Positions 29,840 through 61,515 of a DNA stretch of 64,000 bases are shown here, piece by piece; the stretch's first letter is position 1; each line of letters opens with the position of its first letter. The stretch is from an uncultured delta proteobacterium (lineage in GTDB: Bacteria > Desulfobacterota > Binatia > UBA9968). Location: positions 352,001 through 416,000 of the forward strand of contig CAVUZH010000019.1 in assembly GCA_963745835.1 (NCBI GenBank), written 5' to 3'. The translations under genes and the position numbers were made by a program. The notes beneath the pieces were generated by a model, which saw only the letters and a list, made by a program, of their open reading frames with translations, was not told the origin of the DNA and did not search any database.

Positions 29840-29883
29840 ATTCCCCCAACGTGCTGTCACGAGCCGATAAGGTGATCAGATAA
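29840..29883 (+). repeat. orphan SBP tail remnant
   Basis: IP-NVLSRADKVIR* with no gene body. Confidence 0.85.
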
Positions 29884-30268
29884 GTCCGATCCCGACGAGT
29901 TTGATGCGAGCAACGTCATAGGAGCCCTGGCCGGTTTTCATCACCGCTCGGCTGGTTTAGCAGCAAGCTTTGATTCAGAGATTAATGAGACAAAAAGCCG
30001 ACAATAGACTATGGTTGGGCCTCGCTTCCGCCGCAATCGGGAATAGCCAAGTCAAAGTATCGACGATCTGAGATCGGTGTGAAGTTTTGCAGTCTCCTCT
30101 CGCTCGCAAGCCATGCGGGCATGGCGGAAGCGTAGCAGCGGAATTTGCAACATCGACTTAGGTTTTCGACTACGTTGCAGTACGCCTTTTCTATCCTTGG
30201 CATCGGCCTACAACGAGCAAAGCAGATCAATCCAGCACCACTCCATTGGATGCGTCACCGCTAATGGA

Positions 30269-30331
30269 GCGGCCAATCAAATCGGTGACGATCCCGCGTC
30301 ACCTCCTGGCGCAGCGATTAAAATGATTTGA
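30269..30331 (+). repeat. degenerate orphan SBP tail remnant
   Basis: AANQIG-TIPRHLLA... Confidence 0.6.
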
Positions 30332-30389
30332 TAGCGCATTCGCCTTTCGACTTGCCGGGACACCTTCCAGTGCACTGACAAAAACTATC

Positions 30390-31379
30390 ATGCGAAAATT
30401 TTCTTTCACGGTCCTCATTGGCGTGCTGTTAGCATTGTGCGTTCCGGCACATGCGCAGCAAGCGGCGAAAGTTTTCCGCATCGGCTTCATGGCAGGTGTG
30501 AGTCCGCCTCCCGCCGAACCTTCGCGCTCCAACATAGAAGCTTTCCGCCACGGCTTACGAGAATTCGGTTACATCGAAGGAAAGAACGTCGTCATCGAGT
30601 CCCGATGGGCCGACGGTAAACTCGATCGACTTCCGAACCTCGCGGCGGAGCTCATTGGCCTTCAGGTCGAAGTTATCGTAACAGGCGGAACACCGGCGGT
30701 CATCGCCGCCAAGCAAACCACCAGCACAATTCCGATTGTTGCGGCAAGCGCAGATAACCTGGTAGAGGCGGGCGTGGTTGCAAGTCTCGCCCGGCCGGGT
30801 GGAAACGTTACCGGGTCGACGAGGGTCGATGCGGACTTCAGCGCAAAGCGCTTGGAGCTTCTGAAAGAAACCTTTCCCAAGCTTACTCGTCTAGCTGTGC
30901 TTTCTCATGGCGCCTTAGGAGGTGATAAGGAGGAGCTGGAAGAAACTCAGGCAGCAGCCGCCTCTTCAGGCGTTCAGATTGAATCCTTCCAGGTACAGGA
31001 CTCGAGCCGGTTTATCAGCGTTTATGCCGAGATGAAAAAAAAGCGCGCCGATGCCCTGATCATTTTTACCAGTAGCTTCACTTCATTTCACCGGAGAAAA
31101 CTCCTGGAACTCGCCACCGAAAGCCGTCTGCCAACCATGTGTGCCCAGGCGGCGTGGATCGATGCTGGTTGTTCCATGTCCTATGGACCGAATCTTACCG
31201 AATTTTACCGGCACGCAGCTTACTTCGTCGATAGAATCTTTAAAGGCGTCAAGCCAGCAGATCTTCCAGTGGAGCGTCCGAGAAAATACGAGCTGATCAT
31301 CAATCTAAAAACAACAAACCAGATTGGGCTGACGATCCCGCCGAATATTCTGGCGCGAGCGGATCGGGTCATTCGATGA
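30390..31379 (+). CDS. SBP paralog 2
   Basis: Family motifs; intact ORF. Confidence 0.93.
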   Translation: MRKFSFTVLIGVLLALCVPAHAQQAAKVFRIGFMAGVSPPPAEPSRSNIEAFRHGLREFGYIEGKNVVIESRWADGKLDRLPNLAAELIGLQVEVIVTGGTPAVIAAKQTTSTIPIVAASADNLVEAGVVASLARPGGNVTGSTRVDADFSAKRLELLKETFPKLTRLAVLSHGALGGDKEELEETQAAAASSGVQIESFQVQDSSRFISVYAEMKKKRADALIIFTSSFTSFHRRKLLELATESRLPTMCAQAAWIDAGCSMSYGPNLTEFYRHAAYFVDRIFKGVKPADLPVERPRKYELIINLKTTNQIGLTIPPNILARADRVIR

Positions 31380-32395
31380 GGCCTAAGCCCAAATCAGCAA
31401 GCGCAAAAGAAACCCCGATGAAAGCTAAGCTTGCGGGGTTCCTTTTAAGCGCCACGGTCCTTGTGCTTTGTGTTCCTGCCGATGCACAGCGACCAACGGG
31501 TAAAATTACGATTGGCTGGTTGTCTGCTGTTGGCGAGGGAAGCACCGGTCAACAGGAAATTATTCGAATTCTTCGTGAGTTCGGCTATGTCGAGGGCAAA
31601 AATATTCACTTCGAATTTCGTTATGCGCAAAACAAGCTCGATCGCCTCCCGGCTTTGGCTGAGGAGTTGGTCAGTCATAAAGTCGATGTACTCATTACAC
31701 CGGGCACACCGAGCGCCTTGGCTCTACGTAATGCTACTAAGACGATCCCGATAATTTTTGTCGATGTAACCGATCCAGTTGGGGCCGGGTTGGTCAAAAG
31801 CCTGGCCCGGCCTGGAAGCAACCTTACTGGTTTCAGCAGTATCGAGTCGGTACTGGTGGGAAAACGGCTGGAGTTGCTCAAGGAAACACTCGGTGATCTT
31901 TCGCGAGTAGCCGTGCTCTGGGATCCGCAGAATTCCGGCGCCCGACACGAATGGGAAGAGAGCCAACGCGCGGCGCGCGATCTGGGGTTGCGGCTTCACT
32001 CGATGGAAGTTAGTAGCGCCGATCAATATGAGCGGGTATTCGATCAAACATTCAAGACGCGCGGCACCGGGTTGGCGGTACTGTCGAATGCATTAGCGGC
32101 TTCTAGTCAGCAAACAATCGTTGATTTGGCGGCGAAACACCGGCTCGCGGCAATCTATTTTCGCAGGGAGTTTGTGGCTCTAGGTGGTTTGATGTCGTAC
32201 GGACCGGATCAGACTGAGCGCTTCAGGCGCGCAGCCGCACTGATCGACAAAATCCTCAAGGGCGCAAAGCCCGCCGATCTCCCAATCGAGCAGCCGACCA
32301 AATTCGAATTAGTGATCAATCTAAAAACAGCCAAGCAGATCGGCGTAACGATTCCGCCAAACGTGCTGGCGCGAGCGGACAGAGTGATTCGATAA
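31376..32395 (+). CDS. SBP paralog 3 (alternative start 31418)
   Basis: Family motifs; ATGA overlap with paralog 2. Confidence 0.93.
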   Translation: MRPKPKSASAKETPMKAKLAGFLLSATVLVLCVPADAQRPTGKITIGWLSAVGEGSTGQQEIIRILREFGYVEGKNIHFEFRYAQNKLDRLPALAEELVSHKVDVLITPGTPSALALRNATKTIPIIFVDVTDPVGAGLVKSLARPGSNLTGFSSIESVLVGKRLELLKETLGDLSRVAVLWDPQNSGARHEWEESQRAARDLGLRLHSMEVSSADQYERVFDQTFKTRGTGLAVLSNALAASSQQTIVDLAAKHRLAAIYFRREFVALGGLMSYGPDQTERFRRAAALIDKILKGAKPADLPIEQPTKFELVINLKTAKQIGVTIPPNVLARADRVIR

Positions 32396-32421
32396 CGTGA
32401 CGTGACGCAACGAGCAACAGT

Positions 32422-33408
32422 ATGCAAGCTTTGATTGCTGCCATTGCGGTGTGCGCGACATTGTCCGCGCCTGGCTCTCACGCCTCGGCGCAAACTGCGC
32501 GTGGAGTTTACCGTCTCGGCTTTCTCTCCCCGTCTGGTACCCTCGAGCCTTCCATCCCGGGCACCGCAAACCTTGTCCCCAAGCTGCTGCGGGATTCCGG
32601 CTATGTCGAAGGCCGAAACTTGGAAGTACAGCGCCGCTTCGCTGACGGCAGAATCGACCGTCTGCCACAATTGGCGAAGGAACTGGTCGATTTGCGCATG
32701 GATGTAATTGTCGCCGTCAGCCCGACTGCCATCAAGCCTGCACTCGATGCGACCAAAACAATTCCCATCGTCATGGGATTCGGTAAGGATCCTGTCAGAG
32801 ACGGATTCATCACCAGCCTTGCCAAACCCGGCGGAAACATAACGGGTGTCGTCGTTGCGCCCGAAGACGTGCTTGCAGGTAAGCGGTTGGAATTGATCAA
32901 GGAGGCCGTCCCGCAGGCGGAGACCATCGCCCTTCTGGGGACAGGTGAGCCGAGCTCGCGATTGCAGGTTGAAGAGGCACAGAAAGTTGCGCCGGCGCTA
33001 AATGCGAAACTTCGAGTAGTTGAACTGCAGGACGGCGACTACGAGAAAGCCTTCCGGTTCATCGTGCAGGAGAAAGCCGGCGCCATGTTCGTGCTCGCAA
33101 GCCCAATCCTCAACGCAGGGCGCGATCGCATCATCGAACTCGCCGTGAAGCACCGTGTTCCGGCAATTTATGAGTGGCCGGAGCAAGCAGAGATCGGTGG
33201 TATGATGGCTTACGGCAGCAGTCTTGCAGCGTTATCACGGCGGGTGGCCTGGTACGTCGAGCGAATTCTGAAAGGGGCGAAACCCGGAGATCTCCCTGTG
33301 GAGCAACCGACGAAGTTCCAGTTGGTGATCAATCTCAAAACCGCCAACCAAATCGGTCTGACGATTCCACCGCACATTCTGGCGCGAGCGGATAGGGTGA
33401 TCAAATGA
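32422..33408 (+). CDS. SBP paralog 4
   Basis: Family motifs; intact ORF. Confidence 0.93.
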   Translation: MQALIAAIAVCATLSAPGSHASAQTARGVYRLGFLSPSGTLEPSIPGTANLVPKLLRDSGYVEGRNLEVQRRFADGRIDRLPQLAKELVDLRMDVIVAVSPTAIKPALDATKTIPIVMGFGKDPVRDGFITSLAKPGGNITGVVVAPEDVLAGKRLELIKEAVPQAETIALLGTGEPSSRLQVEEAQKVAPALNAKLRVVELQDGDYEKAFRFIVQEKAGAMFVLASPILNAGRDRIIELAVKHRVPAIYEWPEQAEIGGMMAYGSSLAALSRRVAWYVERILKGAKPGDLPVEQPTKFQLVINLKTANQIGLTIPPHILARADRVIK

Positions 33409-33640
33409 GGCTGAGAGTCATTCAGGTCGTTATAGCTGTTCTGCTCTTTGCGCTTAGCTTTCCAGCCCAGGCGCAGCAGCTCAAGAGCGCCCTCGGATAG
33501 AATTCCTAACTATCTAGTCTCTTCTGTTTTTCCCAAGGGGCGCATTGTGCTTTTCGCAGCCGGCTATGCGAGCTTGAGTAGCTAGAGGGAAAGAACATTG
33601 CCATTGACATGGTGATATTCACAGACAAAACGGGATCGCT
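33405..33640 (+). pseudogene. decayed SBP 5' fragment
   Basis: MRLRVIQVVIAVLLFALSFPAQAQQLK, then frameshifts and stops; EGKNIAID remnant. Confidence 0.75.
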
Positions 33641-33904
33641 CCATTGTCAATCGCAAGACGGGCCAAGTAGTTGCTGTTCGTCGGACAGATCGAATTTCTG
33701 GAATGGACGCCGGACGATCACCTGAGACATCCACGATTTCCAACCTACGCAGCGATAAAGACCCGCACGTGATTATCCATGAGTAGCCGAATCAAGTCTG
33801 ATCTCCCCTGTTATCGAATTGCAACGCCTGAATGGCCTTTGGACGAAAAAAACCAGGTTTTCACGGGTTCCCTTTATAGCATACCCGTTGCCGTGGGACA
33901 GTGA

Positions 33905-34891
33905 TTGGTGAAGAAACAGCTCTCCTGGCTCGCCACGCCTCTACTGCTCGTCTGCCTTTCTTCCGTTGAGGCGCAGCAGCTCAAAAAAGCTCCTCGGCTC
34001 GGTTTTGTCGCCCTGAGTTCTTCAGTAGCCGGGGGAGGAAATCTCGAAGCGTTCCGCCAAGGACTTCGCGATTTGGGCTATTTCGAGGGCGATAATTTTT
34101 CGCTCGAGCCGCGTTGGGCTGATGGATGGGCAGAACGACTGCCCGGCATTCTCAACGATCTGATCCAGCAAAGAGTGGACATCATCGTGATTAGTAGTGC
34201 CGCCGGCGCGCTCGCGGCGAAAAAAGCGACCACGACGATTCCCGTCGTCTTTGCCGCAGTCACCGATCCTTTCGAGAATGGCCTTATCGCCAACCTGGCT
34301 CATCCGGGAGGCAACCTGACAGGAACCTCGTTAGCGGTTGGTGAGGGGTTTAGCGGTAAATGGGTAGAGTTTCTGAGAGAGGCTGTTCCGAAAGCTACCA
34401 GCTTTTCGGTGCTATGGAACCCGGGTCATCCCGTGGCGGCTGTGTTCGCCAGAGAGGCCGAATTGGCCGCTCGAGCTTTAGGTATCCGTCTGCGCTTTTT
34501 TGAAGCCCGTGATCCCAAGCATCTTGATACGGCACTTGCAAATATCGAAAGAGACCGCTCAGCGGCGCTCCTGGTAATCGCCGATCCCATTTTCTTCACT
34601 CAACGAAAGCTAATTGCGGACTTCGCAATCCGTCAGCGCTTACCGTCAACTTTCCTATTCAGAGAATTTGCCGAGGCGGGCGGCCTGATGTCTTACGGCC
34701 CGAGTATTACAGACTCTCACCGGCGTGCTGCCATATATGTGGACAAGATCCTGAAAGGCGCAAAGCCGAGCGATCTACCGGTGGAGCAGCCCACGAAGTA
34801 TGAGCTGGTCATAAACCTGAAAACAGCCACGCAGATCGGCGTAACGATTCCGCCCAACGTGCTGGCGCGAGCGGACAAAGTGATCAAATGA
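33905..34891 (+). CDS. SBP paralog 5
   Basis: Family motifs; intact ORF. Confidence 0.93.
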   Translation: MVKKQLSWLATPLLLVCLSSVEAQQLKKAPRLGFVALSSSVAGGGNLEAFRQGLRDLGYFEGDNFSLEPRWADGWAERLPGILNDLIQQRVDIIVISSAAGALAAKKATTTIPVVFAAVTDPFENGLIANLAHPGGNLTGTSLAVGEGFSGKWVEFLREAVPKATSFSVLWNPGHPVAAVFAREAELAARALGIRLRFFEARDPKHLDTALANIERDRSAALLVIADPIFFTQRKLIADFAIRQRLPSTFLFREFAEAGGLMSYGPSITDSHRRAAIYVDKILKGAKPSDLPVEQPTKYELVINLKTATQIGVTIPPNVLARADKVIK

Positions 34892-34989
34892 TTTCCGCCG
34901 GGAGAATCATTCGCTTTTTGCGCTAGGCGTTATGTTGTTGGTTATTAGCTTTTCAGCGCAGGCGCTGCAGCCTGAAGAGGCGTCCTAGG
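34888..34989 (+). pseudogene. SBP signal-peptide-only fragment
   Basis: ALGVMLLVISFSAQALQP. Confidence 0.6.
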
Positions 34990-35103
34990 AATGTGCGCAT
35001 CTGGGGCGGCATCCAATTCAGAAATTCACTGGAAGTGGGCTATGACATGGGTCAGAAGATCGCCGCTTATCTGATCGATAACTCTCTCAAGCCGGTGCGT
35101 TGA
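34990..35103 (+). pseudogene. 3' fragment of a PAP2/vanadium-haloperoxidase-like gene
   Basis: NVRIWGGIQFRNSLEVGYDMGQKIAAYLIDNSLKPVR* resembles the R-x-x-GGIHF C-terminal motif with His replaced by Gln. Confidence 0.7.
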
Positions 35104-35329
35104 AGAGGTTGCAACGGCTACGCCGCTGCGCCAGTACGTGATCTGCATCGCCGCGGGATCAGGATGAATAGCTAGACGTACTGAACTCGAGCTATATGGA
35201 GTCCGCCATTTCGAGCCATAGGCAGAGCGCATACTCACCCACTCCTTAAGTATGCTAATCAATGCTGCCCGGCCGTGTTTCCGCCCAACGTTCTGACTTT
35301 CGCAGATAAAGTTTTGCGCTAGCCGAACG

Positions 35330-35409
35330 ATCTAAAATCAAAATCAAAAATCTAAATCGCTAGGGTCGCGCCGAATGCGCTGGCGCGCACGAACAAGGTG
35401 CTCAGGTAA
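35330..35409 (+). repeat. AAAATC repeat plus orphan tail remnant
   Basis: ATCTAAAATCAAAATCAAAAATCTAAATC, then VAPNALARTNKVLR*. Confidence 0.75.
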
Positions 35410-35414
35410 AACCG

Positions 35415-36392
35415 ATGAATGGAAAGCTCGCTTGGCTGATCGTTTTATGCCTCCTCGCATCTATCCAATTGGCGCAGGCACAGCCACGGATCTATTCGGT
35501 AGGACTCCTTTCACTCGGAACCACTGTCACTGCGGAGGTTCAAGGCTTGCGCGACGGTCTGAGGGCAGCCGGATACGTTGAGGGAAAGAATCTGATTTTT
35601 GATGTAGGAGTAGCGAAAACTTATGAGGAACTACGTCCGGTTGCGCAGTCTTTCGTAGAGAAGAATTTCGACGTCATTGTCAGTACCGGTGCATCCGCAC
35701 CGCTCATTGCCAAACAATCGACACAAATCATTCCGATCGTGTTTCTCGGTGGTGCCGACCCTGTTCAAGTAGGACTCGTTAAATCACTGGGACATCCCGG
35801 AGGGAACATCACTGGAATCGCTCGCTACAGGGACACTGAAATCTACGGAAAACGGCTTGAGGTTTTCAAGGAAGCTGTGCCGAATTTGCGAAGAGTCACT
35901 GTGCTTTACAATGCCCGCGGTGAAAATCCGACGCATTTCGCAAGCCTTAAATTGCTCCAAAAAATCGCACCGAGGCTGGGCGTCACGCTCATCGAAAAGC
36001 CGATCAAAACAGTCAGTGAAATGGAAAACGTTATTTCGGATATCTCCAGAGATATCATGGATGGTTTGTTCCCGATATGCGCCACGATGTTCAGGGATTT
36101 GACTAAGTATATGGCTGAGACGGCAAGTCAAAGAAAGGTTGCGTTGTTCGGTTGCAGCCCTCTTGTAGTGACGGATTTCGGGGCTCTGTTGTACTACGGT
36201 GCGGACAATTACCGAATGGGACAACGAGGTGCCTGGTACATTGACCGCCTTCTCAAAGGCGCCAAGCCGCAAGATCTGCCAGTAGAAATTCCGAGTTATT
36301 TCGAAATGATCGTAAATCTAAAAACTGCCAAGCAGCTCGGCCTAACGATTCCGCCCAACGTGCTGGCGCGAGCGGATCGAGTTATTAGATGA
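35415..36392 (+). CDS. SBP paralog 6 (divergent)
   Basis: Family motifs; intact ORF. Confidence 0.92.
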   Translation: MNGKLAWLIVLCLLASIQLAQAQPRIYSVGLLSLGTTVTAEVQGLRDGLRAAGYVEGKNLIFDVGVAKTYEELRPVAQSFVEKNFDVIVSTGASAPLIAKQSTQIIPIVFLGGADPVQVGLVKSLGHPGGNITGIARYRDTEIYGKRLEVFKEAVPNLRRVTVLYNARGENPTHFASLKLLQKIAPRLGVTLIEKPIKTVSEMENVISDISRDIMDGLFPICATMFRDLTKYMAETASQRKVALFGCSPLVVTDFGALLYYGADNYRMGQRGAWYIDRLLKGAKPQDLPVEIPSYFEMIVNLKTAKQLGLTIPPNVLARADRVIR

Positions 36393-37416
36393 AAGTAGTC
36401 GTGAGTGGTCAGCAGTCAGTCTCAAAAACGCATTTTGTTTAACGCTCAGCGCTTTGCTCGTTTCGCTTTCATAGCGGCGGCGGCGACGTAAGAATTCCCA
36501 CGGGTCGGCATCGCCACAGGCGATCGAGAAGAACGCCGAAGCAGCACGCATCGAGTTCCATCCGGCAGGCCTGCGCGAGATGGGGTATATCGAAGGAAAA
36601 AATATCTTGAGTGAATACCGATTTTATGGCGAACAATTTGAACGTATTCCCACAGTCGTAAACGAGCTCGTACAGAGCAAGGTAGACGTCCTCGTACTTG
36701 AGAAACTTCCGGGCTATTCGGGCAGCCAAAGAAGCGACCAAGACTGTCCCTATCGTTATGGTCACGACACAAAATCCCGTCGAGGCTAAGATCGTCGACA
36801 GTTTGGCACGGCCGGGAGGCAATATTACCGGGGCTAACGAGACTTACACCGAGATTTAAGCGGGAAGCGTCTTGGAGTTACTGAAGGAGGTGCTCCGGCG
36901 CGGCACTCGCGGGAATGGTCTCGGGACGTCAAGGCCCGATGCTGAGACATCAGGATCCGCCATCGCTTATCGTGAATATGAGGCCGCCGCCGGCCCTCTG
37001 AAGCGTTCAAGCTGCAATCTCTCGAGGTACGCGGACCCGAAACCTGACTTCAACCGTGTTCTCCAGGCGGCGAAGGGACGTGTCGATGCGCTGATGATTA
37101 TACATAACGCCTTCATAGTGAATTACCGTATGGAAATTGCCGACCTGGCGATTAAACATCGCTTGCCCAGTATAAATGAAGGTAGCGCATACGTCGAAGC
37201 TGGGGGCCTGATGTCGTATGCCACCAGCGACGTCGAACTTTACAGGCGCTCTGCGTGTGTACATCGATAAAATCCTAAAAGGCGCCAAGCCCGCGGAATT
37301 GCCGGTAGAGCAGCCGACAAAGTTCGAACTACTGATCAATCTGAAAACAGCCAAGCAGATCGGCCTAACCATTCCGCCAAACGTGTCTGGCAAGGGCGGA
37401 CAAGATAATTAAGTGA
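36389..37416 (+). pseudogene. SBP paralog 7, multiple frameshifts
   Basis: Family motifs spread over three frames. Confidence 0.85.
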
Positions 37417-37738
37417 AAACGAGTACGAGGATCATTCAGCTTGTGTTCAGCACTATGCTCTTGGCCCTCGGCTTTGCCGCCCATGCCCAGCAGGCGGGTA
37501 AGATTAGCCGAATAGTTTACGTTTCGACGGCAGGCGATCCCAAGAATCCTAGATCTGAGAGAGAGGCATTCCAAGAAGGGTTACGGGATTTCGGCTATGT
37601 CGACGCGCCACGACCGCGCTCAAAAGTGTTCAGCCAACGGGAAACGTCGCGTTCACCATTGATCTCGATATTGTCAGGCAGATTGGCTTGACGACTCCGC
37701 CGAATGTCTTGGCGCGGGCGGATCGGGTATTCAAATGA
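37413..37738 (+). pseudogene. internally deleted SBP (5' 64 codons plus tail)
   Basis: MKTST...GLRDFGYVD, about 70 unrelated nt, then [19 protein letters not shown]. Confidence 0.85.
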
Positions 37739-37783
37739 AAAAGCAAAAGTAAAAATTAAAAATGAACAAATAGCCATGGGGAC

Positions 37784-38761
37784 ATGAAGAAAAAAATCTC
37801 GGTCATTACTCTTATCGCCATGCTCCTTGGGCTTTGTTCAATCGCCAATGCGCAGCAGCAAGAAAAAATTCCACGGATAGGTTTTCTTTCCGTCGCTTCT
37901 ATTGCGTCTCTGTCGCCCCGGCTCGATGCCTTCCGGGAAGGACTGCAGAAGTTCGGTTATGTCGAAGGCAAAAACATCGCGTTTGAATACCGATCCGCCG
38001 AAGGAAAAACCGCTCGGTTGCCGGAGCTGGCGTCCGAGTTGGTTCGTCTCAAAGTCGATTGTATCGTGACGGCCGGGACGGTGCCGACTCGCGCTGCCAA
38101 GCAAGCCACCAATACAATCCCGATCGTGATGACAAGTCCCGGCAATCCTGTTCAGTCAGGGCTTGTTGTTAGTCTTGCACGCCCAGGCGGAAACCTAACG
38201 GGGGTGAGTTCGTTTTCCTCGGACTTGGCCGGCAAGCGGCTCGAGTTGCTCAAAGAAACTATTCCAAATCTTTCTCGGGTTGCTACTTTCTGGAACCTGA
38301 GCAGTACGGACCTCTTCCGCAAAGAGACCGAGCAGGCGGCGGAGTTGCTAAAAGTGCAGCTCGTAGCAATAGAAATTCGCAGTCTTGACGGTTTACAAGA
38401 CGCTTTCGGATCCCTTGCTAGGGAGCGTGCAAACGCTGCCATCATAGGCGGCGGCGGGTTTTTCGTCACTCACCAAACGAGAATGATCGAGTTGGCGACA
38501 AAGCACCGGATGCCGGCGATGTATCCGGAGCTGGAATTCGTGCTGGCCGGAGGCCTGATGACCTACGGAACTAGCGTTCCCGATCTGTACCGGCGTGCGG
38601 CGACGTACGTCGATAAGATCCTCAAAGGTGCAAAGCCCGCCGATCTGCCCGTTGAGCAACCAACGAAGTTCAAATTGATCATCAATTTATCAGCCGCCAA
38701 GCAGATCGATCTCGCGATTCCGCAGAAGGTGCTGGCGCGGGCGGATAGGGTGATTCGATGA
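37784..38761 (+). CDS. SBP paralog 8
   Basis: Family motifs; intact ORF. Confidence 0.93.
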   Translation: MKKKISVITLIAMLLGLCSIANAQQQEKIPRIGFLSVASIASLSPRLDAFREGLQKFGYVEGKNIAFEYRSAEGKTARLPELASELVRLKVDCIVTAGTVPTRAAKQATNTIPIVMTSPGNPVQSGLVVSLARPGGNLTGVSSFSSDLAGKRLELLKETIPNLSRVATFWNLSSTDLFRKETEQAAELLKVQLVAIEIRSLDGLQDAFGSLARERANAAIIGGGGFFVTHQTRMIELATKHRMPAMYPELEFVLAGGLMTYGTSVPDLYRRAATYVDKILKGAKPADLPVEQPTKFKLIINLSAAKQIDLAIPQKVLARADRVIR

Positions 38762-39829: not shown

Positions 39830-39880
39830 CATTTTGGATTTTCGATTTTAGATTTTGGATTGAAAGCCGGAAAAGAACTG

Positions 39881-40962: not shown

Positions 40963-40997
40963 GGCGTGAGCCGTGAGGCGTCAGGCGTCGGAGCAAG

Positions 40998-52153: not shown

Positions 52154-52182
52154 GAGTGATCACCGCCGCGCAGCGTACTTCG

Positions 52183-52320: not shown

Positions 52321-52329
52321 ACAATGCGG

Positions 52330-52450
52330 GCCAAAGCGGGGGAGCTTCCGATTCAACTGGCCGACGAAATTTGATTTCGTCGGCAATCTCAAACTGCTAA
52401 GCAGATCGCTCGACTATACCGCCGCACGAGCCGACAGGGTGATCAAGTGA
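52330..52450 (+). pseudogene. SBP tail remnant
   Basis: AKAGELPIQ-PTKFDFVGNLK-AKQI...RADRVIK*. Confidence 0.8.
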
Positions 52451-53434: not shown

Positions 53435-54459
53435 CAACGGCGAGTAAACAGCGAGGAATCAGCAGAACGACTCGACACGGGGTCAGCAAAATCCTGCTGA
53501 TTATCTTCTTTCTGATACCGCCTGCTCTCTTAGCAACTGTGACACAGGCGCAGCAACCCTTACATATGCCACGTATTGGTGCGTTACATTTAGGCACAAC
53601 CAAAGCGGCCGCCGCGCCATTTGAAGCCTTCCAACGCGGAATGAGGGAGCTGGGCTATGTAGAGGGTAAGAATATTACGATCGAGTACCGATATGGTGAC
53701 GGTAACGAGGAGAAGTACGCGTTTGTGGCAAGCGAGCTTGTTGCTCTTAAACCGGCGGTGATCGTCACATGGGGAACCGATGTGGCGGCGGTCGTAAAGA
53801 AAACGACCAGGACCATTCCGATAGTTTTCGCGTTGGCGGATCGGCCCGATATCTTAGGGCTCGTGGATAACCTTGCCCGTCCTTCGGGTAATCTGACCGG
53901 ACTCACGACGCTGAACTTTGAGCTCAGCACGAAACGATTGGAGTTGCTGAAAGAAACGATTCCGTCACTTAGTCGGGTCAGCGTATTGGCGATGTCCCAT
54001 CCGTTGGTCGCGATTACGTTTAAGGAAATTCAGGCAATGGCTCGTTCTTTGGGAATCCAGATTCAGCTAGATGAGATCAAAGGTGCGCCCGACATGGCCC
54101 GTATTTTCAAGCAACTTACCAACGATTCAGCAGGTGCGGTTTTGTTGTTGCCAGGCCGCGAAGTTGTCTTTGGTCCTTCGGCCGTAACAGTTGCCATTCA
54201 ACACCGCCTACCTACTATGGCTAGTCAGACTGTAATCGCTGATGCCGGTGGGCTCATGAGTTATGGGGCTCGCGTTAGCGACATGTCTAAACGTGCCGCA
54301 ACTTATGTCGATAAGATTCTTAAAGGAGCCAAGCCGGCTGATCTGCCGATCGAGCAGCCAACGAATTTTGATTTCGTCATCAATCTGAAAGCCGCCAAGC
54401 AGATCGGTTTGACCATTCCCCCGAACGTCTTAGCCCGAGCGAACAGAGTGATCCGATGA
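53431..54459 (+). CDS. SBP paralog 21
   Basis: Family motifs; GTGA overlap. Confidence 0.93.
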   Translation: MTTASKQRGISRTTRHGVSKILLIIFFLIPPALLATVTQAQQPLHMPRIGALHLGTTKAAAAPFEAFQRGMRELGYVEGKNITIEYRYGDGNEEKYAFVASELVALKPAVIVTWGTDVAAVVKKTTRTIPIVFALADRPDILGLVDNLARPSGNLTGLTTLNFELSTKRLELLKETIPSLSRVSVLAMSHPLVAITFKEIQAMARSLGIQIQLDEIKGAPDMARIFKQLTNDSAGAVLLLPGREVVFGPSAVTVAIQHRLPTMASQTVIADAGGLMSYGARVSDMSKRAATYVDKILKGAKPADLPIEQPTNFDFVINLKAAKQIGLTIPPNVLARANRVIR

Positions 54460-54512
54460 GCGTGCGCAATCCAATCCAAAATCGAGAATCCAAATCGAAT
54501 GATTCCGCCAAA
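54410..54512 (+). repeat. 103-bp junction block, copy 1 (tail + spacer + start of orphan tail)
   Basis: 102/103 identical to 61331-61433 by manual comparison; the orphan tail ends at 54546. Confidence 0.95.
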
Positions 54513-54579
54513 CGTGCTAGCGCGAGCGGACAAGGTCATCCGCTAAAAATTCCGAGTTACACGTTTCTGATTTCGAGGT

Positions 54580-55390
54580 ATGAATCCAAAATATCTCTTG
54601 ATGGGTGCTTTGCTCTTTGCGCTTTATTCAACGGCCCAAGCGCAGCAGTCGGCGAAAACTCCCCGGATAGGATTTCTAAGTACTGGCTCGCCATCCAACG
54701 TACCGGCCCGCCTTCAGGCGTTCCGGTACGGTCTACGTGAACTCGGCTATGTTCACGGCAAGAATATTGTGATCGAGGAACGCTATGCAGACGGCGAAGT
54801 AGATCGGCTTACCGCACTTGCGCAAGAGCTTGTACATCTAGAAGTGGACGTGATTGTTACCTCTGGTCCATCGCCCACCCGTGCTGTCAAGAAAACAACC
54901 GCCGCAATTCCCATTGTTATGACATGGGACTATGACCCTGTTGACAATGGCTTGGTCGCCAGCCTTGCCCGGCCCGGCGGCAACGTTACGGGTATCCACA
55001 CTGGCACCGGAGATTAGTGGAAAGCAACTGGAGCTCTTGAAAGAAATCATCCCCAAGCTCTCGCGCATGGCCGTACTCGGGACCGCAAACGTTCCGGGCA
55101 ATGCAGAAGCGTTGACAGCGACCGAGGTGGCCGCAGAAGCGCTCAAGGTGCAGCTGCAATACTTAGAGACACAAAAGGCAACGATATCGCGACTGTATTC
55201 CAATCCGCGCGTAAGGGCGTGCCGACGCAATGCTCACGCTGGCGAGCCGCGTTCTTTTTTTTCACCGCACTCAGGTGGCAGATCTCGCCGTAAAGAACCG
55301 GCTCCCAGCGATATACGGCGAAAGCGAACATGTCGAAGCTGGCGGGCTTATGACGTATCGCGTGAGCATCGTCGACTTGTTCCGGTGGTA
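54580..55390 (+). pseudogene. SBP paralog 22, frameshifted and 3'-truncated
   Basis: Three track ORFs join; similarity stops after IVDLFR, no tail. Confidence 0.85.
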
Positions 55391-55628
55391 TCGAGAGCCG
55401 CCTCGTCTTTCGTATAAAAGACGGCTCGATTCACGACGAGAGGGTATTCTTCACGCATTGGCAAGGTATTTACACTGCAGAACTACCGTCTGGGAGTTAA
55501 GATTCCCGCTCCTTTTCCGTGTCACTTCGTGGAGTAGTGCAGCACTCGGCGCCGACACGCGCAGCACCCATCAGCAATGAAACTGTTTTAAAAACTACTT
55601 TTTCTACAGGCTCGTTAGGCCGCTCTCC

Positions 55629-55663
55629 AAAAAAGAAGGGGCCGGCAAACCGACCCCTTCTTT
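55629..55663 (-). terminator. rho-independent terminator of the minus-strand cargo gene
   Basis: AAAGAAGGGGTCGG-TTTG-CCGGCCCCTTC followed by T6 on the minus strand. Confidence 0.85.
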
Positions 55664-55691
55664 AATCGACCGAGTTTCAGGCCTCGATGCG

Positions 55692-56471
55692 CTACTTCGC
55701 GAAGCAGGCCGAGTCATCAATCTCGCCCGGCCAATCAACCGGTACCAACGTGGTGCAGTGATAGAAGCGTAGCTGGAGTAGCTTCAGTCCCTTGTTGTCA
55801 TAGCTCCAGAAGTAGTCCTGCAGGACGTCCGAGAACAACGGGATACGCTTGTAGAAGGCGCCATCGATCGTGACGTTGTAGAGATACAACAGGTTTGCCG
55901 TCACGTTCTCGAACTTCGCCGGGCGGCCGCTGGCATCGAGTGTCAGCTTGTTGGTGGTGCCGCACACTTCTGTAATGCCATCGTCGGCCAAGCCGCAAAG
56001 CATCATGACTGCCGTACCGCGCGGGTTACCCAGCGCGCGGACGAAGACGGAGTACACGCTGGTGCCGCTGCCGCAGACGTAGTAGTCGCCTAGGTCAGGA
56101 ATGCCATCGGGATCGACCGTCCCATCGGCGTTGTACAGTGTGCATTCGTCATTTACACCGGGCTGGTCATTGATCACGCCACTGTCGGCTGGGGGAAGCT
56201 GGAAGCTTGCTGAGCCATCCGTGCCGTTCCGGTCGAGCACTCCGAAATCCAAACCCTCGATCAGGTTGATCTTGGTCGTGCTCTCACAAGGAACGAAGAT
56301 CGTGTGGCCCTGCGTGCCGGTCATGTCGGCCTTCTTGCCCTTGGGCACGCAGATGATGTTCAAATTGTAGTGCGGCCCATTGGGAGCACCATTACCGGTT
56401 TGTCCGTACGTAGCGCTCGTGCCCAACCCAAGGGCGAGAACCAGCCCCATGCAAAAGATAGATCGGTTCAT
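55692..56471 (-). CDS. secreted Cys/Asp-rich hypothetical protein
   Basis: GAGGAG RBS, signal peptide, GNGAPNGPHYNLNII, several Cys, own terminator. Confidence 0.85.
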   Translation of the reverse strand: MNRSIFCMGLVLALGLGTSATYGQTGNGAPNGPHYNLNIICVPKGKKADMTGTQGHTIFVPCESTTKINLIEGLDFGVLDRNGTDGSASFQLPPADSGVINDQPGVNDECTLYNADGTVDPDGIPDLGDYYVCGSGTSVYSVFVRALGNPRGTAVMMLCGLADDGITEVCGTTNKLTLDASGRPAKFENVTANLLYLYNVTIDGAFYKRIPLFSDVLQDYFWSYDNKGLKLLQLRFYHCTTLVPVDWPGEIDDSACFAK

Positions 56472-56639
56472 TTTTTCTCCTCTTTGTTTTGGATTCCGAT
56501 CACCCTGCTGAATTTAGTTCGTTGGCTGACATAAAGCGCACTCATTTGTAATTGTGAGTCACAAACCTCCTTTCTGTTGAGTACGCCCAAGAGCTCAAGG
56601 AAGGCAAAAGTCCACTGGCTGATCGTGAGCTACTTGGCG

Positions 56640-56655
56640 AGCAAAGCAAGTGCCT
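56640..56655 (-). promoter_or_regulatory. candidate sigma54 promoter for 55692-56471
   Basis: Minus strand AGGCACTTGCTTTGCT = GG-N10-GC. Confidence 0.5.
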
Positions 56656-56878
56656 TTATTTATTTTGCGCTAGAATCTCCGCATTGATGTACATTTACCT
56701 CTAAGTCCCACATGGACGACTTTTAAGGTGAGCAGAAAAATACTATTGTTGTGCTCGAACGTACAAAATCGGATCGGGGCGACCACTTTCACTTATTATA
56801 ATCGTCATCGGGCGGCGATTTACGTGGAAGAATCCTGAATTTTCGATGCAGGACGAAGAGATAAATAGAAGATGTTGC

Positions 56879-56996
56879 ATGCCGGTGGAGCAACCGACCA
56901 AATTTAAGTTAGTGATCAATCTTAAAACCGCAAAACAGATCGTCTTTGACGATCCCGTCGAATATATGGGCCCGTGCGGACAAGGTCATAAAGTGA
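56879..56996 (+). pseudogene. SBP tail remnant
   Basis: [37 protein letters not shown]. Confidence 0.88.
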
Positions 56997-58114
56997 TTTT
57001 GGATTTTAGATTGCCGATTTTCGATTATGTGGGAAGACGCGTGAAAGTAATTTCTTTGGAGCGAGTTTCCGCTTCTTGTTCCGGAAATCGAAAATCGAAA
57101 GCCTGTACTGAGCTAAGTCGAAGTATCCAAAATTCGAAAATGGTTGGGGCTATCGGTAATCGCTTTCTCGCTCGTGGTGTTGGATGTGTGGCCGCGGCGC
57201 AGCAGCCAATGAAAATCCCGCGGATAGGATACCTAAGTGCTGCTTCACTTTCCGCTATTTCGGAGCGTGTGGAGGCGTTCCGGCAAGGGCTGCGTGAGCT
57301 TGGGTACGTCGAAGGAAAGAATATTGTGATTGAATGGCAATCCGCAGAGGGAAACCTAGATCGCCTCCCTGCACTCGCCGCCGAACTCGTGCGTCTCAAA
57401 GTAGACGTCATCGTTACCAGTGCTTCGACGCAAACTCCTGTTGCCAAGGCAGCAACTTCAACGATTCCCATTTTTATGGCGCAGGACGGTGATCCCGTTG
57501 CCGCCGGGTTCGTCGCCAGCCTGGCGCGGCCTGGCGGAAACATCACCGGGTTGTCAACCCTTTCTCCGGAGGTAAGCGGAAAACGACTTGAGCTTTTGAA
57601 GGAGATTATTCCTAAGCTTTCCCGCGTGGCTGTTTTCGGAAGTTCAAATAACCCGGGCAATACCCAATCGCTCAAGGAGATTGAAGTAGCTGCAGGAGCT
57701 TTCGAGCTGCAGCTTCAATTTCTAGACGTACTAGGTCCTGAGAATATTGAGACTGTATTCCAGGCGGCCAGCCATGGGCGTGCTGATGCGGTTCTCGTCC
57801 TAGCGGGTCCTGTGTTCTTTTCTCACCGAAGACGGGTCGTAGACGTCACGGTAAAGAGCCGGCTTCCGGCGACCTATCCCAGGCAAGAATTTGTGGAGGC
57901 CGGTGGACTTGTGACTTACAGCGTGAACATTACCGATTTGCACCGCCGCGCAGCAATTTATATCGACAGGATCCTGAAAGGCGCCAAGCCAGCGGATCTT
58001 CCCGTCGAGCAACCGAGCAAATTTGAGCTGATCATCAATTTGAAGGGCGCCAAGCAGATCGGCCTGACAATTCCGCCGCACGTGATAGCGCGGGCCGACA
58101 GAGTGATCAAATGA
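56993..58114 (+). CDS. SBP paralog 23 (start uncertain; signal region looks scrambled)
   Basis: Family motifs; GTG overlaps the remnant stop. Confidence 0.88.
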   Translation: MILDFRLPIFDYVGRRVKVISLERVSASCSGNRKSKACTELSRSIQNSKMVGAIGNRFLARGVGCVAAAQQPMKIPRIGYLSAASLSAISERVEAFRQGLRELGYVEGKNIVIEWQSAEGNLDRLPALAAELVRLKVDVIVTSASTQTPVAKAATSTIPIFMAQDGDPVAAGFVASLARPGGNITGLSTLSPEVSGKRLELLKEIIPKLSRVAVFGSSNNPGNTQSLKEIEVAAGAFELQLQFLDVLGPENIETVFQAASHGRADAVLVLAGPVFFSHRRRVVDVTVKSRLPATYPRQEFVEAGGLVTYSVNITDLHRRAAIYIDRILKGAKPADLPVEQPSKFELIINLKGAKQIGLTIPPHVIARADRVIK

Positions 58115-59205
58115 TTTTTGGATTTGCGATTTTGGATTTTGGATTGCGGAGAAAAGCAGTCAGGGAAATAATCCGGTCCGAATCTCTTTCCGTGAACAAT
58201 CTAAAATCTAAAATCCAAAAACTAAAATGGCTGGGGATCGTCGCGATCGCTTTCACATCCGCCTTTGATGCGGCTGAAGCCTCGGCGCCGCAGCCAGGAA
58301 AAATCTTCCGCGTAGGTTTCCTCGAACCAAGCACTGCTTCTGGTATCGCGGTCCTCTTGGATGCGTTTCGGCAAGAGCTTAGCAAGCTTGGCTGGATTGA
58401 AGGAAAAAACATCATCATCGAGTATCGGTTTGCCGAGCAAAAATCTGAGCGCCTACCTGAGCTTGCGGCGGAGCTGGTTCGTCTAAAGGTTGATTTGATC
58501 GTGACCTCAGGCGGACTGACACCGTTAGCGGCGAAGAAAGCAACTAGTACCATCCCCATCGTGATGACGAACTCTGTGGACCCCGTGGGTGCAGGTTTGG
58601 TTGCCAGTCTGGCGCGGCCGGGCGGCAATATCACCGGGAACTCGGGTTTATCGCCCGAGCTAATTACCAAAATGCTAGAGATACTCAAGGACGTGATCCC
58701 CAAGCTCAACCGAGTTGGACTTCTGCGGTCGGCGGTCGGCGTAGCAACAGACCTCCAACTGAAAGAGCTCAGGCCTGCGGCTGTGGCACTGAAGCTAGAA
58801 TTGGAGGAGATCGAGGCTCAACCCGACGCCAAAGGCTTAGAGAGCGCGTTTAAAACCGCAAAGCAGAAGCAGGTCGGCGCGATCATGGTGAACCCCGGTC
58901 GCCGCTTTGCCGCCGAAAGAAAACGGATCGTCGAGCTTGCCAGCGAATATCGGTTGCCGGGTATTTACTTTTCTAAGGAGTATGTCGATGAGGGCGGTCT
59001 CATGTCCTACGGAGTGGATTTCGATGACCTGTTCCGGCGCGCGGCTGTTTACGTGGACAAGATCCTGAAAGGCGTCAAACCGGCTGATTTGCCGGTGCAG
59101 CAGGCGACCAAATTTGAATTCGTGATCAATTTAGAGGCCGCAAAACAGATTGGTTTGACGATTCCAAACAACCTGCTCGAACGTGCGAATAAAGTTATCA
59201 AATAG
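58111..59205 (+). CDS. SBP paralog 24
   Basis: Family motifs; hairpin-derived leader; ATGA overlap. Confidence 0.93.
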   Translation: MIFGFAILDFGLRRKAVREIIRSESLSVNNLKSKIQKLKWLGIVAIAFTSAFDAAEASAPQPGKIFRVGFLEPSTASGIAVLLDAFRQELSKLGWIEGKNIIIEYRFAEQKSERLPELAAELVRLKVDLIVTSGGLTPLAAKKATSTIPIVMTNSVDPVGAGLVASLARPGGNITGNSGLSPELITKMLEILKDVIPKLNRVGLLRSAVGVATDLQLKELRPAAVALKLELEEIEAQPDAKGLESAFKTAKQKQVGAIMVNPGRRFAAERKRIVELASEYRLPGIYFSKEYVDEGGLMSYGVDFDDLFRRAAVYVDKILKGVKPADLPVQQATKFEFVINLEAAKQIGLTIPNNLLERANKVIK

Positions 59206-59278
59206 ACAGTCGGCGATCCCGCGAGAATCAGAGATCCCGCCGCACGTGCTGACGCGAGCAGACAAGGTGATCAGATGA
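59206..59278 (+). repeat. orphan SBP tail remnant
   Basis: IPPHVLTRADKVIR*, whose ATGA starts the next gene. Confidence 0.9.
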
Positions 59279-60348
59279 AAATCAGGAGTAATGGAGCGTT
59301 GGATTCCTGGAGTGTCGGGTCACTCCGGTTAAGAGCATCACTCCAGTATTCCAAACCTCACTTCACTCGATACCGATTGAGATCGTGCGTTACCGTTTGC
59401 GCTCTGCTAGTTGTGCTTGGCTCGTCGCCTGATGCACAGCCGGGTACGACGAAAACTCTTCGTCTCGGTATTCTTGAGCCGGGCGGGTCCACGAACGTGT
59501 GCAACGACGGCCTTCGACAAGGGCTGCGCGGGCTGGGGTACGTAGAAAAGGAGAATCTAGCGATAGAAGCGCGTTATGCTGAGTGGAAGCCGGACCGACT
59601 GAAGCGCTTTGCTAGCGAGTTGGCTCAACTCAAGCCTGACGCGATCTGGACTCATGGACCGATCTCCGTTCGTGCGCTCAAACCGGTTACCGCGACAATT
59701 CCGATCATTCTCGGTGTTTCCCGCAATCTGGTGGAACTGGGAATTGTTGCCAGTCTCGCGCGGCCAGGCGGCAACGTTACCGGGATGGACTTGCGTGATG
59801 ACGAGATACTAGGGAAACGGCTGGAACTATTTAAAGAAGCTCTGCCGAAGAGTTCCCGTGTGGCCGTTCTGGCGGATCCTAATGATACCGGTCACGCATC
59901 CATTCCAAAGAACATAGAACAGGAGGCTCATGCTCTTAGGGTTCAGCTGCAACGTGTTGAGACGAGCGGGCCGGAAGATTTCGACCGAGCGTTCGTCACC
60001 ATGCTGCGTGAGCAAGCTGACAGCCTGATCCTTCCAGAAAGCCCACTCTTTTCCCAAAACCGACACCGCATATTCAAGATTGCAATCGGCAAGCGACTTC
60101 CCACAGCCGCGGGAGGATCACATTTCGCCGAAGCAGGTAGTCTGATCTCGTATGGAGCGAACGTCTTCGATGTATGTCAACGTTCTGCTTTTTTTGTGGA
60201 CAAAATCTTCAAAGGCGCGAAACCGGTAGATCTTCCGATCGAACGGCCCACCAAGTTCAACCTTGTCATCAACCTCAAGACCGCAAAGCAGATCGGTGTT
60301 ACGATCCCGCCCAACGTGCTGGCGCGGGCGGACAGGGTGATCAAGTGA
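59275..60348 (+). CDS. SBP paralog 25 (divergent)
   Basis: Family motifs; intact ORF. Confidence 0.92.
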   Translation: MKIRSNGALDSWSVGSLRLRASLQYSKPHFTRYRLRSCVTVCALLVVLGSSPDAQPGTTKTLRLGILEPGGSTNVCNDGLRQGLRGLGYVEKENLAIEARYAEWKPDRLKRFASELAQLKPDAIWTHGPISVRALKPVTATIPIILGVSRNLVELGIVASLARPGGNVTGMDLRDDEILGKRLELFKEALPKSSRVAVLADPNDTGHASIPKNIEQEAHALRVQLQRVETSGPEDFDRAFVTMLREQADSLILPESPLFSQNRHRIFKIAIGKRLPTAAGGSHFAEAGSLISYGANVFDVCQRSAFFVDKIFKGAKPVDLPIERPTKFNLVINLKTAKQIGVTIPPNVLARADRVIK

Positions 60349-60384
60349 CCCTTCTTCGATCGTGTTCGCAACGGTGAATGCGTC

Positions 60385-61380
60385 ATGCTTAAAGGCCCGA
60401 TTTGGCTATTCGTACTTATCATTCTCGGCTGCGCTAGTGTTATCGAAGCGCAGGAACAGAAAAAGATAGGGATTTTGTCCGGCGGCTTTGCTGAATCAGC
60501 ATCCGCTAGTACGGAAGCTCGCCAACCGAGAACCAACGTCCCCAACCTTCGCCAACACCTGCAAGAGCTTGGATGGACCGAACGCCGAAACGTACGATTT
60601 GAGGAAAGGTACGCAAAAGGTCAACTGCGGCAGCTTCCCGAATTTGCGCGCCAGCTTGTTAACAACAAAATGGATGTAATTGTCGCCCATGCTCCGGCTG
60701 CTGTTCGTGCCGCAAAAGACGCAACGACATCCATTCCCATCGTCATGGCTCATGGCGGCGACCCCATCGCTCAGGGCTTTGTTGCCAGTCTTGCGCGACC
60801 CGGAGGCAATGTGACAGGAGTCGCCAATCTTTCTGCTGAGCTGAGTGGCAAACGACTCGAACTCCTCAAAGACGTGTTGCCTAAGCTCTCCCGTGTCGCT
60901 GTGCTATGGAATCCGGACGCGCCTGGACCAACCCTTGGGTTTAGGGAGTTGGAATCCGCAGCCAAGCTTGTCGATGTGCCTCTCGAATCTTTGCGCGTGC
61001 ACGGTCCGAAAGAGTTCGAGACAGCTTTCAAAATAGCCAAAGAACGGGCGAGCGGCTTGATCGTGATTCAAGATGTTATGACGGTTAGCCATATCAAAGA
61101 TATTGTGAAATTAGCGGCTCACCATCGGATAGCGGCCATTTACACGGAAAGCGAATGGACCGAAGCTGGCGGGCTGATGTCCTATGGGCCAAGCTTTTTT
61201 GACTTGGAGCGGCGCGCCGCAGTCTATGTGGATAAAATCCTCAAAGGCGCAAAGCCCGGCGATCTTCCTGTCGAGCAGCCAACAAAATTCGAGCTGGCGA
61301 TCAATTTAAAGACCGCGACACAGATCGGCCTGACCATTCCGCCGAACGTCTTAGCCCGAGCGAACAGAGTGATCCGATGA
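60385..61380 (+). CDS. SBP paralog 26
   Basis: Family motifs; intact ORF. Confidence 0.93.
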   Translation: MLKGPIWLFVLIILGCASVIEAQEQKKIGILSGGFAESASASTEARQPRTNVPNLRQHLQELGWTERRNVRFEERYAKGQLRQLPEFARQLVNNKMDVIVAHAPAAVRAAKDATTSIPIVMAHGGDPIAQGFVASLARPGGNVTGVANLSAELSGKRLELLKDVLPKLSRVAVLWNPDAPGPTLGFRELESAAKLVDVPLESLRVHGPKEFETAFKIAKERASGLIVIQDVMTVSHIKDIVKLAAHHRIAAIYTESEWTEAGGLMSYGPSFFDLERRAAVYVDKILKGAKPGDLPVEQPTKFELAINLKTATQIGLTIPPNVLARANRVIR

Positions 61381-61433
61381 GCGTGCGCAATCCAATCCAA
61401 AATCGAGAATCCAAATCGAATGATTCCGCCAAA
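61331..61433 (+). repeat. 103-bp junction block, copy 2
   Basis: 102/103 identical to 54410-54512. Confidence 0.95.
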
Positions 61434-61515
61434 TGTGCTGGCGCGGGCAGACAAAAGTAATGAAGTGAAAGCGTGGCAGAAGGTGAGAGAGTTCGCTTCT
61501 GTGGGGGAAATTGCA

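Follow-up and report, generated by a model that had tools for sequence, protein, structure and literature searches.

Why should the last 45 nucleotides (nt) of a gene recur again and again without the gene? The question is raised by a stretch of 64,000 nt, here called the window, from an uncultured delta proteobacterium (GTDB lineage Bacteria; Desulfobacterota; Binatia; UBA9968), positions 352,001 to 416,000 of the forward strand of contig CAVUZH010000019.1 in GenBank assembly GCA_963745835.1. In our labels the window is G000:C19:352001-416000, where G000 is the source genome; C3, C14, C22 and C24 are other contigs, G004 and G005 are genomes of the same genus, and loci fetched from other genomes carry L numbers (L0xx). 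The window holds a tandem array of PF04392 (ABC_sub_bind) solute-binding-protein paralogues (28563..63490, + strand; from open reading frames [ORFs], Pfam and nhmmer). The ORFs of ~330 codons all lie on the same strand from 28.5 kb to the window end, and the genes end in a common C-terminal motif that finishes (K/R)VI(K/R) before the stop codon. We refer to the last 14 codons plus the stop, 45 nt, as the tail; where two tails follow each other, tail1 is the end of a gene and tail2 the second copy, behind a run of heptamer repeats. A first-pass annotation had noticed tail copies lacking a gene body and suggested that the tail is a DNA-level element, a recombination site and/or a translation-initiation module. 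Our answer, to which we assign a probability of roughly 0.6, is that an internally deleted paralogue left the orphan tails as stubs, which homologous recombination has spread and refreshed; only their last ~15 nt would matter, where the next ORF starts at NTGA.

Gene tails and their orphan copies

PF04392 matches the array genes with scores of 154 and 197.5 bits (cut-off, the gathering score, 25.9). The alignment extends to residue 335 of 337 and to position 292 of 293 of the profile, so that the tail belongs to the conserved domain, as its end, and has not been appended to it. An 873-nt codon hidden Markov model (HMM), made from 61 of G000's own family copies and used for an nhmmer search of the genome, identifies 98 full-length family copies in arrays on C3, C14, C19, C22 and C24; 69 of these are intact ORFs and 29 are broken, genuinely or through assembly error. 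G000 is a metagenome bin with 9.3% contamination. Public data contain a very large number of family members (all 8000 scored candidates reach E<=1e-30), PF04392 is carried by 120/120 homologues among the matches listed, and one named homologue, with 72% identity, is labelled Candidatus Binatia. Three homologues of 571-578 residues (P0003, P0004 and P0014), which align with >90% of the 337-residue query at 56-58% identity, may each be a fusion of two tandem genes through stop loss. The parts of the literature on PF04392 and on Binatota substrate binding that were searched, supplements lying outside this scope, contain nothing on gene tails or on the module described below.

A six-frame peptide search combined with the 873-nt codon HMM establishes that the bodiless tail copies at 29839, 37694, 46137, 48344, 54502, 59234 and 61423 are real, and the HMM likewise recovers the longer 3′ remnants at 46893-47193, 52330-52450 and 56880-56996. 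Two other sites of the first-pass annotation, 30269-30312 (E 0.053) and 35365-35409 (E 0.29), are only weak, decayed copies, while the search adds a decayed copy at 35278 that the annotation did not have. As a control, a separate HMM was made for every 45-nt block of the gene and run genome-wide, and the tail was compared with blocks of similar detectability. The tail block is detected in 90 of the 98 full genes and in 18 copies outside them. The corresponding figures, in full genes and outside, are 93 and 3 for the block LSGKRLELLKEIVPK (the LSGKRLELLKE block), 88 and 1 for each of RPGGNITGLTTLSPE and GYVEGKNIVIEYRYA, one of which is the RPGGNITG block, and 89 and 2 for RAAKKATKTIPIVMT; four further compared blocks gave 96/6, 95/4, 87/2 and 85/2. 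Random left edges together with equally many orphans of other segments, which would speak against the observation, were thus not what was found: 18 tail copies stand against 1-6 for the other blocks.

Thirteen of the 18 outside copies have no adjacent gene block and are referred to as short orphans. Eight of the 13 come after a heptamer run, (AAAATCN)n in either orientation, as the first-pass annotation had noted for several of them, and in these eight the homology begins within a few bases of the IPP codons. The proposed shared left edge therefore holds, and is sharp, for the copies that follow a heptamer run but not for the others: the decayed homology of the copies at 37694, C22 250577 and C24 384304 extends further upstream. 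Expressed in HMM positions, where IPP is 829, the 15 short tail-only matches (E<10) begin at 805-836, seven of them at 826-829, and the seven longer 3′ remnants begin at 655-780. Collectively, these data confirm that the orphan-tail observation is real and non-random.

The tail-run-tail module and its exchange

The sharp-edged copies belong to a composite arrangement. Its usual order is the tail of a whole gene, a stop overlapping ATGA, a heptamer run of 37-70 nt, a junction of 7-8 nt (GTACGGCG, GGATGGCG and similar) and then tail2, which starts from ATTCC; in run-type modules, the heptamer repeats between the two tail copies span 28-70 nt. Tandem Repeats Finder (TRF) reports period 7 in 17 of 29 rows, or 20 when periods 14 and 21 are counted, and the array spacers, in large part tandem heptamers, have the unit types AAAATCN (both directions), GTGAGGC, ATCAGAG and GCAAAAG-like. 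Such spacers occur for example at 39831-39861, 40959-40988, 43022-43062, 49464-49490, 58198-58228 and 63492-63525 (TRF). Since 22 of the 28 strict AAAATC runs in G000 lie within 300 nt of a family gene, the run is not peculiar to orphans. In genes that we call B-type (window genes 40998, 49406 and 58111, and locus L010), the ORF from ATGA reads the run as ..SKIxNxKS.. and continues into the signal peptide; at L010, tail1, ATGA and the run lead into an intact B gene with a 304-codon ORF (MIEQSKIQNLKSVGLFAIV...). Moreover, the stub junction (..AAAATCGGTAGGCG/ATTCC, L012) resembles the first signal-peptide codons of the intact B gene (AAAATCGGTGGGGC, L010). An origin of the run by tandem duplication was also considered: in 29 of 61 genes its best local match falls on the INLKT codons, which lie 75-89 nt before the end of the gene, a match not above shuffles, as 108 of 500 shuffles reach the score. 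The tail1 of the module has its own codon flavour (TTGGCTAGAGCCGACAAAGTAATCCGATGA) across genera.

Two observations on the runs stand apart. Some are split by a ~25-30-nt insert (..AAAACCTGTACTGAGC....GTCGAAGTATCCAAAATC..), as in the spacers of L012, L015, L023, L028 and L029 and at the gene starts 40998 and 56846; it reads ..KTCTE..RSIQN.. in ORFs and may be a small nested repeat element. Moreover, two ORFs on the minus strand of contig C13 contain in-frame AAAATC heptamer runs (G000:C13:364823-364850 and 368090-368124). The sequence after these runs (..LVAYV..LPxYMxP..LPLTPNGK..) presumably belongs to adenylation domains of nonribosomal peptide synthetases, which it resembles by eye rather than by a domain scan, and the heptamer run may insert into coding DNA there.

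The 136-nt module of genome G011 was used as BLAST query over 61 genomes of the same family-level group. By our own count, full-module matches are present in 20 genomes of 12 genera among the matches listed, and 25 copies of the module, from 18 other genomes and 12 genera, were read. One copy, L003, is from an unpublished genome (G018), and without it the sample is 24 copies from 17 genomes and 12 genera. Another 15 loci (L010 and 14 others) were picked because the BLAST match to the module ended before tail2. After tail1 and the run, these continue into an intact or near-intact B gene (two loci), a stub with the IPP edge (two), a stub with a mid-tail edge (three; L042, L044 and L051) or, after gene end and run, unrelated sequence (eight; L039-L041, L045, L046 and L048-L050). 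At L041, AAGAGGAGG and an ATG come directly after the run, and at L045 a start codon follows it closely. The heptamer run may serve generally as a leader, and among the junctions the lineage with the IPP edge has been the most successful but is not the sole one.

What is the state of tail2? In 18 of the 25 modules, its IPP frame is closed by a stop before any ATG; in four of the remaining frames an ATG stands one codon ahead, and in three the ATGA frame coincides with it. Four copies are frameshifted or have an internal stop, and amino-acid deviations amount to 46 of 350 codons in tail2 versus 11 of 350 in tail1. Judged from these reading frames, tail2 is apparently not a working tail. Three comparisons of orthologues within the genus give a consistent picture. 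Between G000 and G004 (L007 pair), the identity is 0.76 in tail2 and 0.74 in the spacer, with flanks at 0.93 and 0.95; between G000 and G005 (L020) it is 0.91 in tail2, 0.95 downstream and only 0.77 upstream; and at 46137 we count ~12 substitutions and a 2-base gap in tail2 between G000 and G005, with near-identical sequence downstream. Orthologous tail2 stubs thus decay within the genus. Across modules, by contrast, tail2 could have been drawn at random from working tails: the diversity at the three codon positions is 0.25/0.19/0.47 in tail2 versus 0.24/0.17/0.50 in the 98 working tails of G000. An IPQS-type tail is found behind the same junction as an IPPN-type tail at L019, L038 and L043. 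Because an unchanged relic from the ancestor of 12 genera would be unrecognisable at 9-25% divergence within one genus (more at 46137), tail2 must be renewed.

Exchange between copies is visible at several places. The modules at 54415 and 61336, 7 kb apart, share 92 identical columns from tail1 codon 3 to tail2 nt 11, with flanks at the paralogue level (~70-75%), an identity block that shows gene conversion ending inside the tails. In the eight of 300 module pairs with a spacer identity of at least 0.9, tail1 is at 0.88, tail2 at 0.74 (the baseline) and the downstream sequence at 0.53; therefore, tail1 and the run are co-inherited with a break at the start of tail2, and tail2 with the downstream sequence does not travel with them. 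Two of the three comparisons of orthologues show a paralogue in place of the upstream gene, and the sequences part within the module or next to it. In addition, the ratio Hobs/Hexp at synonymous positions is 0.90 for 70 conserved columns, 0.81 for the 24 columns before the tail and 0.72 for the tail, and in permutations none of 10,000 random sets is as low as the tail. The comparison with the motif SLARPGGN, which the first-pass annotation had proposed, gave 0.72 versus 0.88. G-ending codons make up 0.48 in the tail versus 0.29 elsewhere, and nowhere are the family's genes more uniform at the DNA level than over their last ~130 nt. Because breaks in orthology and in identity blocks fall within tails, the tail is a preferred substrate for homologous recombination and a hotspot of that process. 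The idea of a DNA-level element is borne out to this extent, in low synonymous diversity and recombination, but not as a special docking site.

The tail also touches the start of the next gene. TGA is the stop in 69 of the 98 tails versus 1015 of 2417 long ORFs, and at 22 of 63 gene-to-gene junctions a family ORF of at least 270 codons begins with the NTGA that overlaps the stop. At 35 of these 63 junctions, against an expected one third, the overlap frame is that of the downstream gene. At junctions from an orphan or remnant to a gene, the overlap start opens a full family ORF in 6 of 15 cases, so that orphans are not enriched for overlap starts (6/15 versus 22/63). The Shine-Dalgarno-like motif GGTGA/AGGTG is not more common at coupled junctions (10/22 versus 21/41), and the sequence past tail2, as read in the 25 modules of other genomes, has an ATG of its own at a distance of 36-58 nt in at least six. 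At 46137, decay affects the front of tail2, whereas G005 retains the overlapping start of a lipoprotein-like ORF, a pattern that fits a possible role for the last ~15 nt of tail2 only. Of the suggested translation-initiation module, the TGA preference and the NTGA starts stand, while the orphans add no enrichment and the Shine-Dalgarno-like motif no link; the very end of the tail is plausibly part of the start region of the next gene.

Sites in the window

All sites in this section are on the + strand unless stated otherwise. The window has several modules. At 46047..46181 (peptide search, HMM, TRF and comparison with the G005 orthologue), tail1 (46047-46091) ends gene 45078..46091 and is followed by the run (46092-46136) and tail2 (46137-46181); GTGA at the stop opens the lipoprotein-like ORF at 46178. 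This non-family ORF (MEIRRKQLRGLVIFLLLLPGC...; 46178-46890) lies within the array, and its first ~240 nt are near-identical in G005, far above the surrounding family genes. The module at 48255..48388 (peptide search, HMM, TRF and comparison with orthologue L020) consists of tail1 (48255-48299, the end of a frameshifted copy at 47427-48299), run (48300-48343) and tail2 (48344-48388), with the next gene at 48393. The two modules that share the conversion block are at 54415..54546 (peptide search, HMM, TRF; tail1 54415-54459, spacer 54460-54501 with two copies of AATCCAAAATCGAG, ATG and tail2 54502-54546) and at 61336..61468 (peptide search, HMM and ORFs; tail1 61336-61380, spacer 61381-61422, tail2 61423-61468). 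In the latter, tail2 is frameshifted and fused into ORF 61420..62490. A decayed complete module with no gene upstream lies at 35278..35409 (five mismatches; E 0.29; TRF 35330-35358), with a tail-like segment at 35278-35322, the heptamer run at 35323-35364 and tail2 at 35365-35409, and the next gene starts at 35415.

Other orphans stand outside modules. The tail at 29839..29883 (MDSPNVLSRADKVIR and stop; HMM 829-873, E 8.9e-5) is immediately preceded by an ATG, ahead of which two heptamer runs (29692-29724 and 29798-29828) form a palindromic pair, and no gene follows for ~500 nt. The one at 59234..59278 (HMM and ORF reading) begins 28 nt past the end of gene 58111..59205, and gene 59275..60348 starts at its ATGA, the overlap start opening 357 codons. 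The remnant at 30269..30312 (IPRHLLAQRLK and stop; HMM 805-850), with decayed KQIG-like bases upstream, is not a sharp-edged orphan. At 37413..37738, an internally deleted family pseudogene (ORF 37413..37691; HMM 810-873) has a signal peptide and ~45 codons joined to the last ~35 codons, with its tail at 37694-37738. The longer 3′ remnants are at 46893..47200 (HMM 605-741 and 693-866; the tail is broken and followed by reverse-orientation heptamers), at 56880..56996 (HMM 758-873) and, on both strands, at 52183..52450, where HMM 623-746 matches the minus strand (52183-52306) and HMM 742-873 the plus strand (52330-52450). In this rearranged remnant, a fragment is inverted beside its natural successor, which corresponds to a small inversion within the remnant. 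Next to the remnant at 56880, a GATTTT run after the stop and an AAAATC run before the next start (56985-57165) are predicted to form a long hairpin enclosing the start region (z -2.08); the hairpin predicted for a similar pair at 29685-29885 is not significant (z -0.87). The array also contains a minus-strand ORF of 259 codons (55692-56471) with a signal-peptide-like start and without a Pfam match.

Explanations and known systems

The reading we favour can be put as a sequence of steps. The stubs would be family genes reduced to their last 14 codons, and the sharp-edged ones copies of one composite module, in which the run represents part of a B-type paralogue, its 5′ leader together with the coding sequence of the N terminus. 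As discussed above, the stub junction resembles B signal-peptide codons, and on this ground we infer that a B-type gene lost the stretch from about codon 15 to its IPP codon. A comparable deletion, differing in its end points, is seen in the pseudogene at 37413-37738. Recombination of tail2 with working tails, by conversion or unequal crossing-over, would then carry the module to new neighbours and renew tail2 up to the end of the homology, keeping the left edge sharp, and between recombination events each stub would decay.

Several points weigh against this reading. The founding deletion is reconstructed rather than seen, and the junctions from run to mid-tail at L042, L044 and L051 mean that junctions arose more than once. 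IPPN and IPQS subtypes at one junction need crossovers in the first ~8 nt of tail2, or a repeated origin. The spacers of L004 and L011 are identical between genera (46/46) while their tails differ at 8-9 of 45 positions; this identity may reflect selection on the module or run as a leader rather than refreshment, or the spacers may have been refreshed from working leaders. Queries for filled and empty orthologous sites (59100-59700, 61000-61900 and the C3 module at 1409648) gave only paralogue-level matches, and the paralogue tree, in which 32 of the 98 translated rows are out of register by indels, is too noisy to address co-duplication. Finally, the contamination of the bin (9.3%) and the 29 broken copies of 98, possibly assembly errors, have to be kept in mind.

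How do other explanations fare against the same data? If the module were a working translational relay kept by selection, ribosomes would restart at ATGA, read the short run ORF, stop in or at the end of tail2 and pass to the next gene. It agrees with this that tail1 stops in ATGA or GTGA in 24 of the 25 modules (L018 ends with TAA), that the short B-frame ORF ends inside tail2 in several modules by reading, that overlap starts open a full gene after 6 of 15 orphans or remnants, that GTGA/ATGA is kept at 46137 between G000 and G005 with an in-frame 6-nt indel behind it, and that the run is as conserved as the coding tails (0.75 versus 0.74-0.80). Against these stand the missing enrichment of overlap starts after orphans, the many modules followed by 36-58 nt and an ATG of their own, the faster divergence of spacer and tail2 than of their flanks in the L007 pair, the four broken tail2 copies and the Shine-Dalgarno-like motif unlinked to coupling, and we consider a relay unlikely. 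A further model has a 91-nt unit of A-type tail plus run spreading itself by conversion-driven insertion between LT and IPP, whereby the host gene gets a new end and its native tail is left as the orphan. Such a unit would account for the co-inherited block of tail1 and spacer with its sharp drop at tail2, for tail2 copies resembling a random sample of working tails, the IPQS subtype included, and for the codon flavour of tail1 in the module across genera. Yet identity upstream of tail1 falls gradually, as it does family-wide, with no unit edge; and tail1 plus run also precedes intact B genes and unrelated sequence, which therefore makes it an ordinary gene end with its leader. That no filled/empty pair was found counts against an insertion, and because none was found the model also keeps some standing, so that we regard it as doubtful. 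More speculative in form, and likewise unlikely, is the suggestion that tail-run-tail is a small conversion-driven cassette that installs itself at the LT/IPP boundary of any family gene, with the tails as homology arms, and gives a new end, an A-rich leader and a short relay ORF. If true, the cassette would represent a protein-free "selfish" insertion of a new kind, restricted to a single gene family and kept in at least 12 genera, and a rare case of a protein-free insertion spreading by gene conversion within one gene family.

In line with the empty cassettes or att-like scars of the first-pass annotation, the tail may be read as a site-specific recombination site of the attC or att type, each orphan being a vacant cassette or the scar of an excision. 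In favour is that a 45-nt repeat with a common edge is found between genes of one array, but the remaining data make this reading highly improbable. G000 has 13 PF00589 matches, none of which is on C19, C22 or C24; the nearest on C3 is ~139 kb from the array, and the only near one, on C14, lies ~3 kb from a family gene pair without a short orphan. Reading of the ORFs in the 1.4-1.6 kb before the C22 and C24 orphans, where no family search was run, recognised no recombinase. The module does not fold better than shuffles (z 0.27), no inverted repeat was noticed in the tail, and Rfam gives no match at gathering score in 28000-64000. Moreover, most gene boundaries lack an orphan (13 short orphans versus 98 genes), orthologous orphans decay, and the tail is the end of a Pfam domain. 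As a separate observation, G000 has twelve Y1_Tnp (IS200/RAYT-like) matches, none on C19, C22 or C24; one, at C3:1438596-1438922, is ~9.5 kb from the end of the C3 array. An assembly artefact of a repetitive array in a metagenome bin, which the contamination and the 29 broken copies might suggest, is scarcely credible given the same module in 18 other, separately assembled genomes and orthologous copies in G004 and G005. Among public sequencing runs, the best has 0.42 of the words, and contigs over 45000-48600 are short, multi-organism and stacked on conserved gene ends.

The stubs illustrate the turnover of a very large tandem binding-protein family in uncultured soil bacteria. The conserved gene end is where the paralogues recombine, and a 45-nt stub can persist and spread over long periods although it does not work as a tail. 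For annotation, it follows that short tail-type ORFs and N-terminal extensions through heptamer runs are not safe gene calls.

How does the arrangement relate to known systems? Like integron cassettes with their attC sites, it is a same-direction gene array with a repeated element at gene ends; it differs in that no integron-type integrase is nearby, the repeat is coding and the end of a protein domain, an attC-like fold is absent and orphans occur at a minority of boundaries. Elements that integrate into a gene end leave duplicated 3′ gene ends (attL/attR), and here too a full gene end is followed by a partial direct copy, but only 28-70 nt of heptamer repeats lie between the copies, without integrase or cargo. 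The heptanucleotide tandem repeats of cyanobacteria known as STRR, and the REP/REPIN elements, share with the runs the period of 7 in intergenic spacers and inverted pairs predicted to form hairpins; the lineage and the units are different, and 22 of the 28 strict AAAATC runs lie within 300 nt of one family. Translational coupling through an overlapping ATGA/GTGA stop-start, as in the E. coli trp operon, is paralleled by the NTGA overlaps at 22 of 63 junctions and the preference for TGA. The genes here are paralogues rather than members of one pathway, however, the orphans show no overlap enrichment, and coupling itself is putative here. In concerted evolution, gene conversion and unequal crossing-over act on tandem paralogues and leave pseudogene stubs behind. 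The array shares with it identity blocks flanked by paralogue-level sequence, low synonymous diversity at the most conserved end, remnants of several lengths and orthology breaks at gene ends. What differs is that one stub form (tail, run, tail) is present in many copies and in 12 genera, and that the stub is only 45 nt long with a shared edge. The orphans are stubs and not sites, the product of known processes, conversion and stub formation, in a new form.

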